NCBI GenBank assembly: GCA_958296125.1
Contig: OY282444.1
Location: forward strand, 1,289,176 to 1,353,175
Direction: 5' to 3'
Length of the DNA stretch: 64,000 nt
DNA from: an uncultured Poribacteria bacterium
Lineage (GTDB): Bacteria > Poribacteria > WGA-4E > PCPOR2b
Shown: in pieces, positions 2,773 through 50,743 of the stretch
How the letters are laid out: each line of letters starts with the position of its first letter
Numbering within the stretch: position 1 is the first letter of the stretch
The notes under the pieces: model-generated
What the model saw: the letters and a program-made list of their open reading frames with translations, nothing else
Told to the model about the DNA's origin: nothing
The model's database searches: none
Made by a program: the position numbers and the translations under genes

Positions 2773-3777
2773 ATGATGCCCCCCCAATACAAAGTTTTGA
2801 TAGCCGATGCCCCGTGGTCTATAGAGCCGGAACGGGAGGTCTTAGGAGAGATAGGTGCGGAGTTAATCGTCGCCGAGACAAAGACAGCGGAGGAACTTCT
2901 CACCTTAGCCCCCCAAGCTGATGGGATACTCACTGATCGGCAATCGATCACCGGCGATATCATAGCAGTTGCTCAACGGTGTCAGGCTATCGCTCGGTAC
3001 GGTGTCGGGTTTGATAATGTGGCATTGGAAGAGGCAACGGCTGCAGGCATCGTTGTTACCAACGTCCCGGCCTACTGCATTGATGAGGTCACCGACCACG
3101 CGATGGCATTGCTGCTGGCGTGTGCTCGAAAGATTCCTCTGTTCCATAAGCACATCAATAGTTGGAATCGAGATGTGGGGCCCCCGATGCGTCGTATCCG
3201 CGGGCAGACGTTAGGGGTCATCGGGTTTGGTAGGATTGGGCGGGCAATCGCACCGAAGGCAAAAGCCTTTGGATTGGAGGTTATCGTCTTTGATCAGTAT
3301 CTCACGTCGGAAGCCATTCAAGCGCACGGTGCGGTGAAGGTTCAACTCCCTGAACTTCTCGCAAAATCTGATTTTATCTCTATTCATACGCCGTTGACAC
3401 CCGAAACGCAGAACTTGATTGGTGAAGCCGAGCTTCGTCAGATGAAGCCCAACGCCTATCTCATCAACACTGCGCGAGGGGGTATCATTGATACAGTTGC
3501 ACTCCACAAAGCGTTGAGCGAGGGTTGGATTGCTGGGGCGGGTCAGGATGTTCTACCGCAGGAGCCCGCGCCCCCTGATGAGCCGTTGCTCACGCTGGAA
3601 AACGTCATTTTAACACCGCACGTTGCGTTCCTCTCCGAAGAGTCAACCTACGATGCCCAGCGAACCGCAGCGTCAGAGGTCGCAAGGGTGTTGACGGGAC
3701 AGATGCCCGAATCGGTAGTGAATCCGGAGGTTCTGGACAGTCCCGTGCTTCGCGCCAAAGGGCTCGCGGGGAAATGA
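2773..3777 (+). CDS. D-isomer-specific 2-hydroxyacid dehydrogenase (CtBP/SerA-like)
   Basis: RYGVGFDNV, GVIGFGRIG Rossmann motif, INTARG, LTPHVAF. Confidence 0.92.
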   Translation: MMPPQYKVLIADAPWSIEPEREVLGEIGAELIVAETKTAEELLTLAPQADGILTDRQSITGDIIAVAQRCQAIARYGVGFDNVALEEATAAGIVVTNVPAYCIDEVTDHAMALLLACARKIPLFHKHINSWNRDVGPPMRRIRGQTLGVIGFGRIGRAIAPKAKAFGLEVIVFDQYLTSEAIQAHGAVKVQLPELLAKSDFISIHTPLTPETQNLIGEAELRQMKPNAYLINTARGGIIDTVALHKALSEGWIAGAGQDVLPQEPAPPDEPLLTLENVILTPHVAFLSEESTYDAQRTAASEVARVLTGQMPESVVNPEVLDSPVLRAKGLAGK

Positions 3778-5768: not shown

Positions 5769-8700
5769 TTACCGCATTGACATTTTCTCAGGATTGCTTG
5801 TGCGCCGCAGGACAACACCCCACTGACCGACTATCCATAGCGTATCGTCGTTTGGAGCGCGGACGATAGTATATAGGTTGTTGGAGATATCTGTATATTC
5901 TCGTTCCCATGTTGTGCCGCCATCCGTTGAATGGAGGATTGTGCCGGCTGCACCAACGACGTAGATTTTCTGCTCCGATAGCGCGAGGATGCCGTAGAGT
6001 GCTTCGGTGACACCGCTCGACAAGGCTTCCCACTTAAATCCGCCTCCAGTTGTGCGGAGGATGATGCCGTAATCGCCGGCTGCCCACCCCTTCCGTTTCG
6101 TGATGAACGACACCCCATACAGATTATAACCGGTGTCGGTTTCGTGATGCTTCCAATATCCGCCCCCGTTGATTGTTCGTTGGATAATGCCGCTGTGCCC
6201 AACCGCCCAACCGAGCGGCGCAAATTTCATCTCGACCCTTTCGAGGTCTTTCCCTGTGGAGGTACGTTGGGGGGTCCAGATGGGGCCCCCGTCTTGGTTA
6301 TGGATAATCTGTCCATCCCTACCAACAGCCCACCCTTCGGAGAAATCGCCAAACGCGACATCGCTTATGGCAAACGGCAACGGCGGGTCTTCCTCAAAGA
6401 GACCTGGGAGCGTCGGGGTTTGTCCCACTGACCATTTCACACCGTTGGTTGTGTACAGCACGGTGCCATCGCGCCGCATTGACCAGCCCCATCGCGTTGT
6501 TCCTTCAGATTCGGCGTTTAACCCCGATACATCGGCAAAGTGAATGCCGACAAGCGTCTGTTCAGTTCCACTTTTCACTGGGGTCCAAGTCTGCCCGCCG
6601 TCTTGGGTCTCCAGCAGTAAGCCATTATCTCCGGTAATCCAACCGTGCGTGTCGTCTAGGAAGAGGATATCCCGGAAGTCATCAAGTTGCTCGCCGAGTT
6701 GACGTTCCCACGTTTGTCCGCCATTTTCAGTGTAATAGATATGCCCTGCGTCGCCAACTGCCCATGCGTGTTGGTCGCCGACGAAGTGCACATTGGTGAT
6801 TGGCAGCCCGGATTGACGACGACCCCGATGTTGGCGGGCTATCGGTCTTTCTCGGTTTTCCCTCTCTGTATCTGTCTGTGTGGTAGCTGTGTCCTCAGCA
6901 TCACTCTCAATCTCTCCTTCAGGCGTGAAACGCCCAACGCGCGATCGCCGCTCGCTCAAATCTCTCTGAAAGGTGTCAGCAAAGCCTTCGTCCAGTGGAT
7001 TGGTGACCGGTGGCTGTGGCTCTTGCGCGTGATCCGCTGCTGCCTCCATGTCTACCTGTTTACTCTGAGCAATTAGTTCTGCCATCGTCTCAAGCCCGAC
7101 GTAGTTCGGCAGCCAACTCTCGCCTTGGTCGCTTGTTACGAGAATCGCGCCGTTACGGTCAATGCCCCAAGCCCGCTGATGGCTATGGAACTTGATTCGA
7201 CGAATCCCTTCCACCACGGTTTCCGGGAAGATTTGTCGCCACGTTACGCCGCCATCAGATGTGATGAGGGACTTGCCCTCCCTGCCCACAATCCAGCCGG
7301 ATTTTGCATCGGCGAAATGCACTGCGGCAGCAGGCTGGTGGGTCTTGCTCTGAATCTCCCAGTAGTCCCCGCTGTTGACGGTATGCAGAATCAGTCCCCC
7401 TTCGACCCGTTGGGGGGTAATTGCCCACCCTTCGGTGCTATTGACGAAATGGAGTGCTGTGATGGGTTGGTTTGTCGTCCCGGTTTTCTGACGTTTCCAC
7501 GTTACGCCGCCATCGGTCGTATGGAGCGTTTGTCCCTGATCCGCACCGAGCCACCCTTCTTGACTATTGATGAACTGCATGGCACTAATCCTGTGGAAGT
7601 TTCGCACTACCTTTTTGATGACCTGCCACGTTTTTCCACCATTTTCTGTCCGAAGCAGCACACCGCGTCCGACAATCCATCCGTGATCTTCGTTGATGAA
7701 AGTGATGTGGCGCAAATCCTCCTTCACACCACTGTGTTGGGGCACCCACGTTTTGCCGCCATCCGTCGTGTGTGCAATCACGCCGCCGGATCCGACTGCC
7801 CACCCGCGTAAAGTAGCTGGCTCATCCCCTGTACGATGAAAATAGGTATCGGCGAAATCCGTCTGCCAAGTTGCCTGACGGACGATTTCCCAATGATAGG
7901 TGACCTCCTCGACGATCGGTGGTTCTTCAATAGCTTCGGCAGCTTCCGTTGGCTCTGCCATAGGGGGGAGTTCGGCTGGCAATTCTTCCGCGTCAACAGA
8001 GTAACGCATCGCAATTCCCCCTTTGCCAACAGCGACCATCCCTTCCGGTGAAAGGGCAAATCCGTATAGGTCGTTCTCCGTGTCGCTCTCCTGCAGTTCC
8101 CATTTCGCCCCACCGTTGGTAGTAGTTAGGATAACCCCGTTGTCCCCCACGACGAGGCCATGCTTTGCATCGGCGAAGTAGACCTTATTCAAATTTGCCT
8201 CCACACCGCTCCGTTGGAATTTCCACGTTTTTCCCCCATCTTTGGTGTGCAAAATTTCTCCAAACTGCCCAGTTACCCAGCCGGTCTTGTTGTCGATAAA
8301 GTAGATCGCGTATAGTTCATTGTAGGTAGGTGTCTTTTGTTGTGTCCATGTCAGTCCGCCGTTGGCTGTGCCGATAATAATGCCGGGCCAACCGACCGTC
8401 CAGCCTTCCTTATCGTTGAGGAAGAACACGCCTTTGAGCATGTGAAATTCGCCCGGCGTTTGCTGCACCCATGATTCGCCGCCATCAGCCGTATGTAAGA
8501 CCGTCCCAAGATCGCCAACAACCCAACCTTTTTTCGGACTGACGAAGTAGGTGCCCCGGAGCGAGTACCACCACCCGCTTTTTTGCGTTTCCCAGCTCTG
8601 TCCGCCGTCAGCGGTATGGACGATCATGCCCCGATCACCGACTGCCCACCCCTCTAGGTCTGAGACAAAATAGAGGCTTCGGATGTTGTCCCAGATATCC

Positions 8701-36620: not shown

Positions 36621-37754
36621 ATGCTCAGAAGGATTTTGGAGTTCTTCAATCCATCGGAACACAAGAATCCATCGGAACGCAAGAATCCACCGGAACACGA
36701 GAATCCACCGGAACGCAAGCAACCTGTTGAAATGTTTCACGAACTGCTCAATGGATCGAGATGTGTATCGAGAAATGATTTTGCCGCTAATTTCGGTGGA
36801 ATTGCCAACGATGTTGTGAAGATGCTCACCAGCGATCAAGCAAAGCAGGCAATACAGGAAGCGCGTAAAACTATGGACAATGATCCGGTCGATTCCCGGT
36901 TGCGTAAGGTGAAGTTTGGTTTATTCAGTGATGCGAAAGAATTAGAGAGGGGAGAAGTCGCCGCTATAGACGGAACCTTCGCCCTTCCAATGCAGAAGTA
37001 TTCAGCAGGGCAGGCGATCTGCATTGGCATTGGTAGTCTCTCACATTGTCGACTAATGCAAGATTCGTCACACTATTGGTCAAGCAAGGCTTTTCTTTCT
37101 GATGCAGCCGATACAGATGATTTCATTGCACGCGAAAAACGAGGGCTTTTCGGCATATATCCAACAGCGTATTTGCGATACTATGAGATTAAGCACTGTC
37201 TTAAAATTAAGGAGCCATACCTGTTCTTAGATGGTCCCTTGATCGATGAGTCCCTCATATCAACTCAAGAAGGGGTGCAACTGTATAACAAACTATTTGG
37301 AAAGAAAAACAAGCAAGTTCTGGGGATTATCAAAAATATAGCGAATCCTGCATTTACCAAATTTGCTCGCGCCCTTAAATCCGGTGAAATTTATGTGATT
37401 GAAACTTTAGCAGACCACTTAAATCAGAGCAACGTAGCCCGTAGCCGCCCTGTATCGGCTGAGTTTAAGAATGGCATCGCCTGCGATGTGTTCAGGGGTG
37501 TCTTTAAGCCCGGAAAAAAAACATTCGGTTTCGAGGTACACAGGGATCACCTAGAGGATATGCTACGCATCATGGCCGCTGATTGTCAAATGAACAAACC
37601 CGGACACGAAATCCCATTTTTACTCAATCGAATTGATGAAGAAGTTCGCAAAAATTTCAGTCAACACATCTTAAGAGATCGAATCGCTACTGAGATGGCG
37701 ATTCAGAGTGAGGAGTTGTTTTTTGAGGAGACGGATGAGCGTTTTTTCCGTTAG
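36621..37754 (+). CDS. NurA-like nuclease
   Basis: AAIDGT and LFLDGPL acidic motifs, C-terminal IPFLLNRIDEEV; starts 10 nt after the HerA stop. Confidence 0.7.
   Translation: MLRRILEFFNPSEHKNPSERKNPPEHENPPERKQPVEMFHELLNGSRCVSRNDFAANFGGIANDVVKMLTSDQAKQAIQEARKTMDNDPVDSRLRKVKFGLFSDAKELERGEVAAIDGTFALPMQKYSAGQAICIGIGSLSHCRLMQDSSHYWSSKAFLSDAADTDDFIAREKRGLFGIYPTAYLRYYEIKHCLKIKEPYLFLDGPLIDESLISTQEGVQLYNKLFGKKNKQVLGIIKNIANPAFTKFARALKSGEIYVIETLADHLNQSNVARSRPVSAEFKNGIACDVFRGVFKPGKKTFGFEVHRDHLEDMLRIMAADCQMNKPGHEIPFLLNRIDEEVRKNFSQHILRDRIATEMAIQSEELFFEETDERFFR
36648..36719 (+). repeat. 18-bp coding repeat x4
   Basis: aatcca(t/c)cggaac(a/g)c(a/g)ag encoding NPSEHK NPSERK NPPEHE NPPERK. Confidence 0.9.
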
Positions 37755-48458: not shown

Positions 48459-48535
48459 TGCTATTGTCCTATGATTCGCGATTAAATATTTCTGCTAATA
48501 CTCAATCCACATCCACACGTTGCAAAGATGCCTAG

Positions 48536-48557: not shown

Positions 48558-48912
48558 TTTCTCTGTCATTAGCAACATCATAATTGAAGCTTTGTGTGGG
48601 GGCTCATCATCCTCTGCCACAATATAGGCTGGGAAGACAATTTGGGTAGCACAATAGTCTATTAAAAAATCAAAACGAGATCAAGCCTTTTTTTCGAGGG
48701 CTCATAGGGGAATTGCCCCTGTAAATGTTAGCAGAGCGCAGATGATGGCACAGATTACCATCACAATCGTATCCATCAGTTTATGACAGGTACGACTGTC
48801 ATTGCGTCGGGGAGCTGTCAAGTCGGAAAAATGTACTTAGATTGAGGCGATTGGTACTTTCGCCATTTAATCTGCTCCTTATGGGTTTGGATAGCTTAAT
48901 ACATTACCTCAA

Positions 48913-48952
48913 GTGACATATTCCCAAGCCTAAATGCTTGGGAGTATGTCAC
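48913..48952. other. 17-bp inverted repeat hairpin at the left edge of the phage-like remnant
   Basis: GTGACATATTCCCAAGC-ctaaat-GCTTGGGAGTATGTCAC, one G.U pair. Confidence 0.8.
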
Positions 48953-49480
48953 CGTTACGGTAAGCAGCATTTTAATCAATGGATCGGGATTAGCCTTGAT
49001 GAAGTGACACGGATGAAAAAGTCTAATTTGAAGTCGGTCAGTTTTTATTATCCGCTTGTCGAGAAACGGTGGACGCGGAACGACTGCGTTCAGTATCTTC
49101 ATAAACACGGCATTCCTATCCCCAATAAGAGTGCCTGTGTCGGGTGTCCGCTTCATTCTAATGTCACGTGGCTAAGCCTGACGGATGCTGAGAAACAGGA
49201 TGCGATCGATTTTGATGAGGCTATTCGAGATAGCCAATTACATATAGATAATACGCCCAAGGCTAAAAAGGCTGTCAAGGGACAACTGAACCTGCTGGAT
49301 ATGGAGGAGGTGGATGCAACAACGAAACAGAGAACTCCTCGACAAGGAGGCACGCAACTATTTATCCATTATTCGGGCAGACCGTTTCGAGACGTACTAT
49401 CAGATATAGGCGATTCACAACAACAACCAGAACTCTTTAATAGAAAAGATGAAGAGTGCGCTGGAGTGTGTTTTATCTAA
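48938..49480 (+). pseudogene. 5'-truncated phage-type PAPS-reductase-like (adenine nucleotide alpha hydrolase) gene
   Basis: QWIGISLDE..RM, YPLVE..WTRNDC, KSACVGCP, C-terminal CAGVCFI; N-terminal PP-loop half and RBS absent. Confidence 0.7.
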
Positions 49481-49538
49481 ACCTAAAAGAGAAACCTTGA
49501 GGAAAGACTCAAGCGTACCGAATTTCTTATTTAATCAA

Positions 49539-49609
49539 TCGAAACGCTCCCGCAGGGGAGCGTCGGGGCAACCTAAGCGTCGGGAGCCCCCTGATGAGAA
49601 CCCCGACGC
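49539..49609 (+). ncRNA. Type II hammerhead ribozyme with pseudoknot; predicted cleavage after C49564
   Basis: UC-GAAA-C 49539-45; stem III GCUCCC/GGGAGC; GUC 49562-64; stem I GGGGC/GCCCC; CUGAUGA 49591-97; 2-bp stem II; 8-bp pseudoknot GCGUCGGG 49577-84 with CCCGACGC 49602-09. Confidence 0.92.
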
Positions 49610-49636
49610 ACAACCTTAACCATAAGGAGATTTATA

Positions 49637-50323
49637 ATGTTACGCTTTGTTTTGGCAATTACAGTTTTTCTCACCCTTCAGCTATCACTGCTTTCATTTT
49701 CAGATGAAGATAACCAAAAGCCAAAGATTCGAGCAGCCATACCGCTTATTGCATATACAGAAGATGGACGAAAGGTTCTATTAAAAAGCGATGGAACTTG
49801 GGAATGGGCAATTGACGCTCCCGCTCCCCCATCATCTAAACCTATCTATCCCAAACAAACAGTGGCTAAAATCATATCTTCAGGTGTTCTTGTAACAACC
49901 CCACATCTACAAGATGTGAGCATAAGCCTCGGGCAGAATATAGTCGAATTAGAACAATTATATGGCGCAGCTGCCCCTAGTCGCTACGACGAAGAAACAG
50001 GATTAACCTTTCCTGGTAATCGTGGTAATGCCCGATTCGGCGGCCTTGAGATCAGTTTGGATAATGACCACAAAGTAGAAACTATTATGATTTACGATTC
50101 AAAGTATAAAACGAATAAAGGAGTTGGAGTTGGCAGTCTCCATCATAAAGTTCGTATCGCTTATGGCATCCCGACAGACATCGGTAGCGGTGGCACGGAC
50201 GCAAGGCTTGAGCACTACAAAGCAGGTGAAGCAGGTGAAATTACGCTAACTTTTGGGTATACAAAGGGTAAGGTTATACTCATTGCGCTATCAGCCATCC
50301 CAATCCCCAACTCAAACCAATAG
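49637..50323 (+). CDS. Secreted hypothetical protein with DUF3157-like motif
   Basis: RBS aaggag; signal peptide; AYTEDGRKVLLKSDGTWEW motif; C-terminal TNKGVGVGS...AYG. Confidence 0.8.
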   Translation: MLRFVLAITVFLTLQLSLLSFSDEDNQKPKIRAAIPLIAYTEDGRKVLLKSDGTWEWAIDAPAPPSSKPIYPKQTVAKIISSGVLVTTPHLQDVSISLGQNIVELEQLYGAAAPSRYDEETGLTFPGNRGNARFGGLEISLDNDHKVETIMIYDSKYKTNKGVGVGSLHHKVRIAYGIPTDIGSGGTDARLEHYKAGEAGEITLTFGYTKGKVILIALSAIPIPNSNQ

Positions 50324-50361
50324 ATAACAACATCGGGGGCGACTTCCCTCGTCCCCGACTG

Positions 50362-50426
50362 TAATGCAGCCCCCGCTGTCATGTAGACAGTCGGTGACGG
50401 TCCCAAGTCCGGAGCGATGCAGAGGG
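50362..50426 (+). ncRNA. Twister ribozyme (P1-type topology); predicted cleavage U50362/A50363
   Basis: UAA; P2 UGCA 50365-68/50418-21; T2 GC/GU; P3 hairpin 50373-94; A then P4 CGG/CCG; L4 UCCCAAGU; GA-GGG giving T1 with CCC; P1 stem not evident. Confidence 0.78.
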
Positions 50427-50469
50427 ATAACAAGGAGGTTAGACACGGAATACAACACACAAGGATATT

Positions 50470-50577
50470 ATGAACGTCATGGATAGAACCATCATTGTGA
50501 ATGCGCCTTGCGGGGATTGCGGCGGCGACTTGTATTCAGGCTATAGCACAGTAAAGAAGCCAGCCCCCATCAATTAA
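50470..50577 (+). pseudogene. 35-aa ORF with a single CxxC, probably a truncated Zn-ribbon gene
   Basis: MNVMDRTIIVNAPCGDCGGDLYSGYSTVKKPAPIN after aaggat. Confidence 0.35.
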
Positions 50578-50592
50578 ACCTGTTAATAAATC

Positions 50593-50620
50593 TTGCATTC
50601 CTTTTATTAATCTGTATAAT
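50593..50620 (+). promoter_or_regulatory. Sigma70-type promoter for the MFS gene
   Basis: TTGCAT-16 nt-TATAAT. Confidence 0.55.
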
Positions 50621-50743
50621 GAATGCGCTGACCGTACGGTGGATCTCGATTTCCGTTCAGCTTTAGTTTGGCGTAGTTGACAATGGAGATGTGCCTATGT
50701 GTATCTTATCTAAAAACCGACGAAGACAGGTGCCCTCAATCTG

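Follow-up and report, generated by a model that had tools for sequence, protein, structure and literature searches.

Within the window, as the whole 64-kb stretch of contig OY282444.1 analysed here is called, a single intact gene is bracketed by two self-cleaving ribozymes of different classes, a type II hammerhead and a type-P1 twister. Both ribozymes lie on the + strand, which is also the coding strand, flank the open reading frame (ORF) directly and stand about 750 nucleotides (nt) apart in phage-derived DNA. The predicted cuts, after 49564 and after 50362, delimit a piece of 798 nt (49565..50362) holding exactly one complete gene. With moderate confidence, the unit is interpreted as a phage-derived module in which the two ribozymes release a hairpin-capped single-gene mRNA from a longer transcript, uncoupling the enclosed gene (the cargo). 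An earlier note, made from the sequence alone, had placed a hammerhead, a ribosome-binding site with an ORF, a hairpin and a twister on this strand with the same two cuts and the same product; reading of the sequence, Rfam and a covariance model developed for this analysis (R1) agree with these placements, and both motifs, with their catalytic nucleotides complete, are true members of their classes.

The two ribozymes and the gene between them

The unit runs on the + strand from the hammerhead through a Shine-Dalgarno (SD) sequence, the cargo ORF, the P0 hairpin and the twister to a second SD sequence, and the positions of the hammerhead and twister relative to SD, ORF and stop codon are canonical. 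The P0 hairpin begins 9 nt 3' of the cargo stop codon. The elements of the unit, with lengths in base pairs (bp), nucleotides or amino acids (aa), are as follows.

49539..49609, + strand: type II hammerhead with a loop-I/3'-tail pseudoknot (Rfam RF02276, sequence reading, structural descriptor)
49577-84 with 49602-09, + strand: hammerhead pseudoknot of 8 Watson-Crick pairs, joining loop I (GCGUCGGG) to the 3' tail (CCCGACGC)
49624..49629, + strand: SD sequence AAGGAG, 14 nt after the hammerhead end and 7 nt before the ATG
49637..50323, + strand: cargo ORF of 228 aa with a signal peptide, a DUF3157-like motif and a conserved C-terminal domain; a real protein family
50333..50358, + strand: P0 auxiliary hairpin of 10 pairs with a 6-nt loop, predicted to stay on the 3' end of the cargo RNA after the cut
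50359..50430, + strand: type-P1 twister without a P1 stem (Rfam RF03160, model R1, sequence reading)

The hammerhead is predicted to cut between C49564 (C17) and G49565. Its catalytic core is complete and matches the consensus throughout (CUGAUGA at 49591-97, GAA at 49541-43, the pairs A49544-U49563 (A15.1-U16.1) and G49598-C49540 (G10.1-C11.1), and C49564), and it is surrounded, as in other members of the class, by three stems, of which I and III end in loops and II is open. Stem III (49544-51/49556-63) has 8 pairs and a GCAG loop, stem I (49565-69/49586-90) has 5 pairs and a 16-nt loop, and stem II has 2 pairs, G49598-C49540 and A49599-U49539. Such 2-bp stems II are common, and the loop-I/3'-tail pseudoknot was defined as a feature of type II hammerheads that is required for fast cleavage (PMC3088659). 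The type II hammerheads extracted from phage loci, where the available sequences represent one narrow lineage, share this architecture, their stem II having 3 bp, their spacer 1 nt and their pseudoknot 5 bp; the spacer of the hammerhead in the window is 2 nt long, and a single nucleotide separates the 5' strand of its pseudoknot from the stem I 3' strand that follows.

The Rfam Hammerhead_II model, which does not score the pseudoknot, assigned 29.2 bits to the motif, with E = 0.078 when the whole window is searched and E = 0.0015 in a search of the 1.2-kb region, and the type II structural descriptor found a single match on both strands of the 64 kb, namely 49539-49609. According to 1000 dinucleotide-preserving shuffles, 0.071 compact hammerheads are expected per shuffled window, 0.008 when the G10.1-C11.1 pair is included, and a required pseudoknot lowers the figure to 0.003 (at least 5 bp) or 0.001 (at least 7 bp); these expectations are indicative only, because the thresholds were set after the candidate was seen. 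The loose form of the descriptor has a high false-positive rate (0.39 per shuffled window), and its type III hits (loci L013 and L059) and long-loop hits (L003, L049 and L065) are unconfirmed and were not relied on. Cleavage by type II hammerheads in vivo is documented for Desulfovibrio vulgaris (PMC8782182), and the features of the present one suggest that it is likely active. As a separate observation, GCGUCGGG is present twice, at 49560-49567 and at 49577-49584.

The twister is predicted to cut between U50362 and A50363 (local sequence CUGU, then the cut, then AAUGCAGCC...ACGGUCCCAAGUCCGG...UGCAGAGGG). Conserved nucleotides that are kept include A50363 as general acid, A50364, G50422 of the GAGGG motif as general base, and the L4 sequence UCCCAAG at 50401-07. 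Stem P2 (50365-68/50418-21) has 4 bp, P3 (50371-80/50386-96) has 9 bp with one mismatch and one bulge, and P4 (50398-400/50409-11) has 3 bp above a basal A.G mismatch (50397/50412). Pseudoknot PK1 consists of C50370-G50407 and a G50369.U50408 wobble, and pseudoknot PK2 pairs C50402-04 with G50424-26 and sets A50405 against A50423. The twister thus deviates from its class in four respects, namely the lack of P1 (50358-61 do not pair with 50427-30), the G.U pair in PK1 that results from a C-to-U change at 50408, the basal A.G of P4, and the mismatch and bulge of P3.

Most phage twisters have a 3-bp P1, unlike those of the window and of the related locus L085. The absence of P1 is not a sign of decay, because P1 is also missing from L085 and from 8 of 36 unique sequences (7 of 34 without the window and L085). 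Among about 2,600 natural twisters tested by McKinley et al. (PMC11662667), P1 was dispensable and PK1 wobbles left cleavage largely unchanged; P4 imperfections away from the loop, as well as combinations of P4 and PK1 imperfections, are likewise tolerated in natural twisters (PMC11662667). Judged by its nucleotides and helices, the predicted twister is probably active.

Run at gathering thresholds over the whole window, Rfam reported no ribozyme, and in E-value mode it returned exactly two at the locus, twister-P1 (36.9 bits, E = 2e-4 per window) and Hammerhead_II. Model R1 was built from 37 phage twisters with the upstream hairpin included, and its alignment shows covariation beyond all 500 of 500 shuffles; it matched the window at 50325-50433 with 46.0 bits and a rough E of about 5e-11. 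The only R1 match in another 74 kb from related loci was in L085, and across 74 phage loci the model found 115 twisters scoring 26-94 bits. Of 12 phage loci that each contain a twister with its conserved core complete, by comparison, the Rfam twister-P1 gathering score brings up only 3, whose twisters score 68.1; the loci named with this result are L013, L018, L032, L047, L059, L060, L062, L064 and L065. This Rfam threshold is therefore no useful yardstick here, since most genuine phage twisters fall under it, and genome scans that apply it under-report phage twisters. Additionally, a metagenome scan for twisters with the GAGGGAUA end of the one in the window returned three unrelated high-GC phage contigs.

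The hairpin at 50333..50358, which had been listed in the earlier note as an element of its own, belongs to the twister: it is the known auxiliary stem P0, which occurs in about 10% of all twister candidates and lowers cleavage in vitro (PMC11662667). In phages it is far more regular. A hairpin of at least 5 bp ending no more than 7 nt from the cut is present in 30 of 30 unique upstream sequences of phage twisters versus 47% of shuffles, and 7 of its 7 modelled pairs are changed on both sides among phage twisters. P0 is universal in phage twisters though it lowers cleavage in vitro, which argues that something other than catalysis is the reason for which it is kept.

Processing into a single-gene mRNA and its precedents

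In the proposed mechanism, a transcript would run through the unit, the hammerhead would cut it after C49564 and the twister after U50362, and the secreted-protein gene would be freed from its neighbours as a 798-nt mRNA by cleavage that is co-transcriptional and protein-free. All four new RNA ends would be structured because of where each cut falls in the ribozyme permutations used. The 5'-OH end of the cargo mRNA would lie inside hammerhead stem I and the pseudoknot, and its 3' end would carry the 10-bp P0, followed by 4 nt and a 2',3'-cyclic phosphate, an arrangement that resembles a terminator hairpin. The upstream RNA would end in hammerhead stem III, and the downstream RNA would begin with the whole folded twister, followed directly by an SD sequence. 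Folded alone, both ends of the cargo RNA are stable (-21.6 kcal/mol for the 5' untranslated region and -19.7 kcal/mol for the 3' tail), and no intrinsic terminator was found on the + strand between the two ribozymes. The ribozyme pair would insulate the cargo mRNA and cap it against end-dependent decay, the likely effect being that cargo stability and translation are uncoupled from the rest of the transcript. Transcription of the unit, cleavage in vivo and the protection of ends are what we infer from this arrangement. The combination of a type II hammerhead with a P0-bearing type-P1 twister would leave a hairpin on every new end, providing a testable hypothesis of ribozymes that form and protect RNA ends.

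The layout itself is not new and is already common in phages, since prophage precedent was given by Perreault et al. (2011) and the same order recurs in a phage contig, L060; the novelty implied by the earlier note therefore falls away. Ribozyme-flanked single genes in prophages were described by Perreault et al. in 2011 (PMC3088659), and tandem hammerheads were found to process polycistronic RNAs of about 2 kb in vitro and in E. coli (PMC3088659). In those clusters, as in the window, a single gene or short gene block of phage-derived DNA stands between self-cleaving ribozymes of the same strand, the hammerheads are of type II with a loop-I/3'-tail pseudoknot and a 2-bp stem II, and the proposed role is the cutting of long phage transcripts into gene-length mRNAs (PMC3088659). 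The differences are that the 3' partner there is a second hammerhead, whereas in the window it is a twister, and that the setting there is an intact prophage, whereas the window holds a stranded fragment in a Poribacteria chromosome. According to the account of Roth et al. (2014) given in PMC6765202, the twister was found as a ribozyme through gene neighbourhoods that it has in common with bacterial hammerheads. Bacteria and phages contain hundreds of hammerheads, twisters and related ribozymes, for which polycistronic processing has been proposed as a role (PMC6765202).

The closest match in layout is phage contig L060 (IMGVR_UViG_3300034023_000704), in which the minus strand carries a Hammerhead_II at 1547-1484 (53.2 bits), about 25 nt, an SD sequence, a 117-aa ORF, P0 with a twister at 1109-1016 (59.7 bits), a further SD sequence, two ORFs and a second P0 with a twister at 330-236. 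Order and spacings match those of the window; the cargo genes are different, and the hammerhead of the window has a longer pseudoknot (8 bp vs 5) and a shorter stem I (5 bp vs 7). Series of this kind are widespread: in many phage loci one strand holds two or three twisters at distances of 0.3-0.7 kb, and of the 38 hammerhead descriptor hits in a sample of 73 phage loci that contain a twister, 37 share the strand of the twister. Two further observations concern these loci. The Hammerhead_II matches of L060 at 1484-1547 and 7896-7961 (minus strand), both well above gathering, read CUGAUGU-GGC where others read CUGAUGA-UGGC, so that the catalytic core would seem to have either an A9-to-U change or a shift of register. 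A few kb downstream of hammerhead/twister arrays, and on their strand, RAGATH-28 RNAs scoring above gathering occur in L018 (10983-11062), L032 (13817-13896) and L047 (2262-2343).

Retrozymes and viroid-like circular RNAs with paired hammerheads (PMC4918200, PMC7229834) are alike in that two ribozymes delimit an RNA of about 0.6-1 kb. They differ from the window in carrying two copies of the same ribozyme in repeats, where the window has two unrelated classes, and in being eukaryotic or infectious and mostly non-coding with demonstrated circles, whereas the window has a bacterial or phage setting and a coding insert, and a circle here would be hypothetical. The locus adds little in kind; its value is that it is compact and fully delimited, with one gene and two different ribozymes. 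To our knowledge, Poribacteria have not been noted as a lineage with such ribozymes.

Phage origin and the weighing of other readings

The locus is a decayed phage fragment in the chromosome of a member of Candidatus Poribacteria, which are uncultivated sponge symbionts. The features that define the fragment are the following.

48698..50743, no strand: low-GC island, right end not defined, absent from 11 related Poribacteria genomes
48944..49480 (ORF 48938-49480), + strand: phage PAPS-reductase-like gene, 5'-truncated, the 3' 58% left (tblastn, DNA identity, phrog_424)
50433..50439, + strand: orphan SD sequence AAGGAGG directly 3' of the twister, with intact equivalents in L085 and L060

The island, of about 2 kb, has a GC content of 0.42-0.47 versus about 0.52 in its flanks. 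To its left lies a dnaA-like gene whose protein is 77-86% identical to its counterparts in 11 Candidatus Poribacteria genomes, and synteny with these genomes (S15 peptidase, dnaA and the 239 nt upstream of dnaA) breaks off at about 48697, beyond which the sequence has a counterpart in none of the 11. A blastn search of the phage database with the island sequence gave no match. The phage-like context proposed earlier stands, on account of the PAPS-reductase-like remnant upstream. It corresponds to residues 130-305 of the 305-aa protein P0012 at 75% identity (tblastn) and to positions 257-352 of the 460 of phrog_424, and its DNA is 84% identical to phage contig L001, the match ending exactly at the stop codon 49480. 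Homologues of the gene are found in phage contigs among terminase, portal, SSB and methylase genes. No hammerhead or twister was found around six of these homologues (L001-L010), and the ribozymes are therefore not linked to the PAPS-reductase-like gene. Two independent metagenome contigs (30 and 14 kb) span the locus and are both identical to the window within the cassette, so the locus is not an assembly artefact.

Both neighbouring genes had been described as truncated. This applies only to the upstream gene, which lacks its first approximately 129 codons, the PP-loop included, and the original phage promoter may therefore be lost; on the downstream side there is an SD sequence with no start codon in range and no recognisable gene, from which it follows that a downstream gene has been lost.

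Several observations weigh against the proposed processing. No promoter signal above chance was found upstream of the unit, and the locus is present in four public runs, all of them low-depth DNA assemblies and none RNA. Both ribozymes score under their Rfam gathering thresholds (29.2 bits against 37 for the hammerhead, 36.9 bits against 67.2 for the twister). In the twister, two positions that hardly vary among phage twisters are altered (C50408U and A50397), which may represent early decay. Inactive folds can also be drawn: the hammerhead 3' tail (49601-09) may instead bind the GCGUCGGG copy around the cleavage site (49560-67), a helix competing with the twister joins 50350-62 to 50387-99, and a register-shifted helix of 50359-63 with 50418-22 appears in the minimum-energy fold. 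The latter two would mask the site at which the twister cuts, in competition with P0, P3, P4 or P2; neither is conserved in L085, and they could be a misfolding liability or a switch. Finally, the end-protecting role of the hairpins is a proposal of this report.

Much of this would also fit a dead relic, in which the ribozymes were functional in an ancestral phage and are now untranscribed or inactive, with at most the cargo gene kept. The truncated upstream gene, the lost downstream gene with its orphan SD sequence, the silent promoter search, the two substitutions at otherwise invariant twister positions, the competing folds and the scores of both motifs below gathering all point in this direction. 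Against it, all catalytic nucleotides, stems and pseudoknots of both ribozymes are intact, including the 8-bp pseudoknot and the 10-bp P0, the cargo ORF and its SD sequence are intact, and every deviation of the twister is of a type that natural twisters tolerate (PMC11662667). A relic is considered unlikely, with a minor but real share of the probability, and the reading of a module that forms a single-gene mRNA is preferred.

In the cargo protein the DUF3157-like motif is weak, and the C-terminal domain of about 140 aa is 35-46% identical to a handful of mostly lipoprotein-like metagenome proteins. The AlphaFold model (mean pLDDT 77) gave weak matches to BLIP-like, YfeY and BamE-type folds. 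No relatives of the cargo were found in 185,579 species genomes or in IMG/VR. A 234-aa paralogue with 42% identity (P0003) is encoded elsewhere on the same contig of 5,156,246 bp, outside the window. A homologue with about 40% identity (P0005; 41% by phmmer) is present in L085/L086, where it is followed in L085 by a P0 hairpin of different sequence, a twister (R1 52.4 bits) and the SD-ATG of another paralogue, and L084 continues with a third. L084 and L085 overlap, and between them they show three cargo-family paralogues in tandem with a twister after the first only. The contig ends of these loci (L084 1-58 and L085 1259-1306) are Nextera adaptor sequence (CTGTCTCTTATACACATCT and its complement). 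The pairing of the gene with a 3' twister therefore recurs once, and its pairing with a hammerhead does not, no hammerhead being found in the 46 nt of sequence present upstream of P0005.

The conserved ribozyme sequences could be read as borders of modules, where recombination between phages would exchange 'moron' genes and a gene would travel together with its ribozyme, and the earlier note had suggested that the unit moves as a whole. In favour of such exchange, the stop codon that precedes the hammerhead is exactly where DNA homology to the nearest phage relative ends, the divergent cargo homologue likewise has a twister at its 3' end, and near-identical twisters stand beside different genes in many phage contigs. 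However, the pairing of cargo and twister is seen in two instances only, the twister of L085 aligns with that of the window barely more closely than the one of L060 does (37 vs 36), and the gene in L085 lacks a hammerhead within those 46 nt. The suggested search for other copies of the cassette yielded none in any collection searched and no flanking repeats; what recurs is gene plus twister, in one related locus. A mobile or exchangeable cassette is therefore improbable, and the claim of movement as a unit is not upheld.

The earlier note had further proposed that the excised RNA is circularised, RtcB joining the 5'-OH and 2',3'-cyclic phosphate ends of the 798-nt piece into a translatable circle. 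The end chemistry is right and is established for these ribozymes (PMC8782182), an SD sequence and a complete ORF lie within the excised piece, and the engineered Tornado system works in E. coli with native RtcB (PMC12628768). Tornado is alike in placing a coding RNA between two self-cleaving ribozymes whose ends are RtcB substrates, and unlike in having designed complementary 'sticky ends' that form a ligation stem, whereas the ends in the window fold on themselves: the two-strand fold keeps each end in its own stable hairpin, with no specific helix to join them. The best duplex between the 5' and 3' ends has -34.7 kcal/mol, compared with -32.5 +/- 5.7 for the same 5' end with 32 unrelated twister 3' ends; an end-to-end complementarity with a z of about -3.9 against simple shuffles was considered and rejected, being gone against the unrelated twister 3' ends. 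A Pfam scan found no rtcB among the ten window ORFs of 369-520 aa, the smaller ORFs and the rest of the 5.16-Mb genome being outside that scan. In addition, phage ribozymes stand in series along long operons, which fits linear processing, literature searches on the topic yielded no report of a natural bacterial circular mRNA made by ribozymes, and the public runs with the locus, being DNA only, offer no junction reads. Combined, these points make circularisation very improbable, while self-excision stays plausible and with precedent. If true, phage ribozyme pairs would be the native counterpart of engineered Tornado, and the product a natural translatable circular bacterial mRNA.

A chance resemblance, in which one or both motifs are not ribozymes, is practically negligible: scores under both Rfam gathering thresholds and the 0.39 hits of the loose hammerhead descriptor per shuffled window would allow it, but a compact hammerhead with its pseudoknot is expected only 0.001-0.003 times per window, the twister has E = 2e-4 (Rfam) and about 5e-11 (R1), and the two motifs lie about 750 nt apart on one strand of phage-derived DNA at canonical positions.

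Minor observations on the surrounding sequence

Exactly at the truncation of the PAPS-reductase-like gene lies a 17-nt inverted repeat (48913-48952, 94% complementary, 6-nt spacer), whose right arm is gene sequence and whose left arm is an inverted copy of the right arm, which suggests a snap-back or palindrome-mediated deletion junction. An element of about 35 nt with the palindrome AGGGGAATTGCCCCT is located at 48703-48738, right at the synteny breakpoint with other Poribacteria; the four metagenome runs with the locus also have it on further contigs that are unrelated, and no other copy was found in the window or in related loci. At 48500-48520, tandem TCCACA motifs (AATCCACATCCACACG) that look like DnaA boxes fall in the 239-nt stretch upstream of the dnaA-like gene that is conserved across Poribacteria.

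Elsewhere in the window, a weak match to whalefall-1 RNA at 37666-37715 (24 bits, gathering 37, E = 0.07), in or beside an ABC-transporter operon, is probably due to chance. Among the related loci, L003 is a phage-like contig of 68 kb on which the PAPS-reductase-like gene has a homologue. It also contains a match to Poribacteria-1 RNA at 3194-3288 that is below threshold (39.3 bits, gathering 74.2, E = 0.003) and hints at a phage of Poribacteria.

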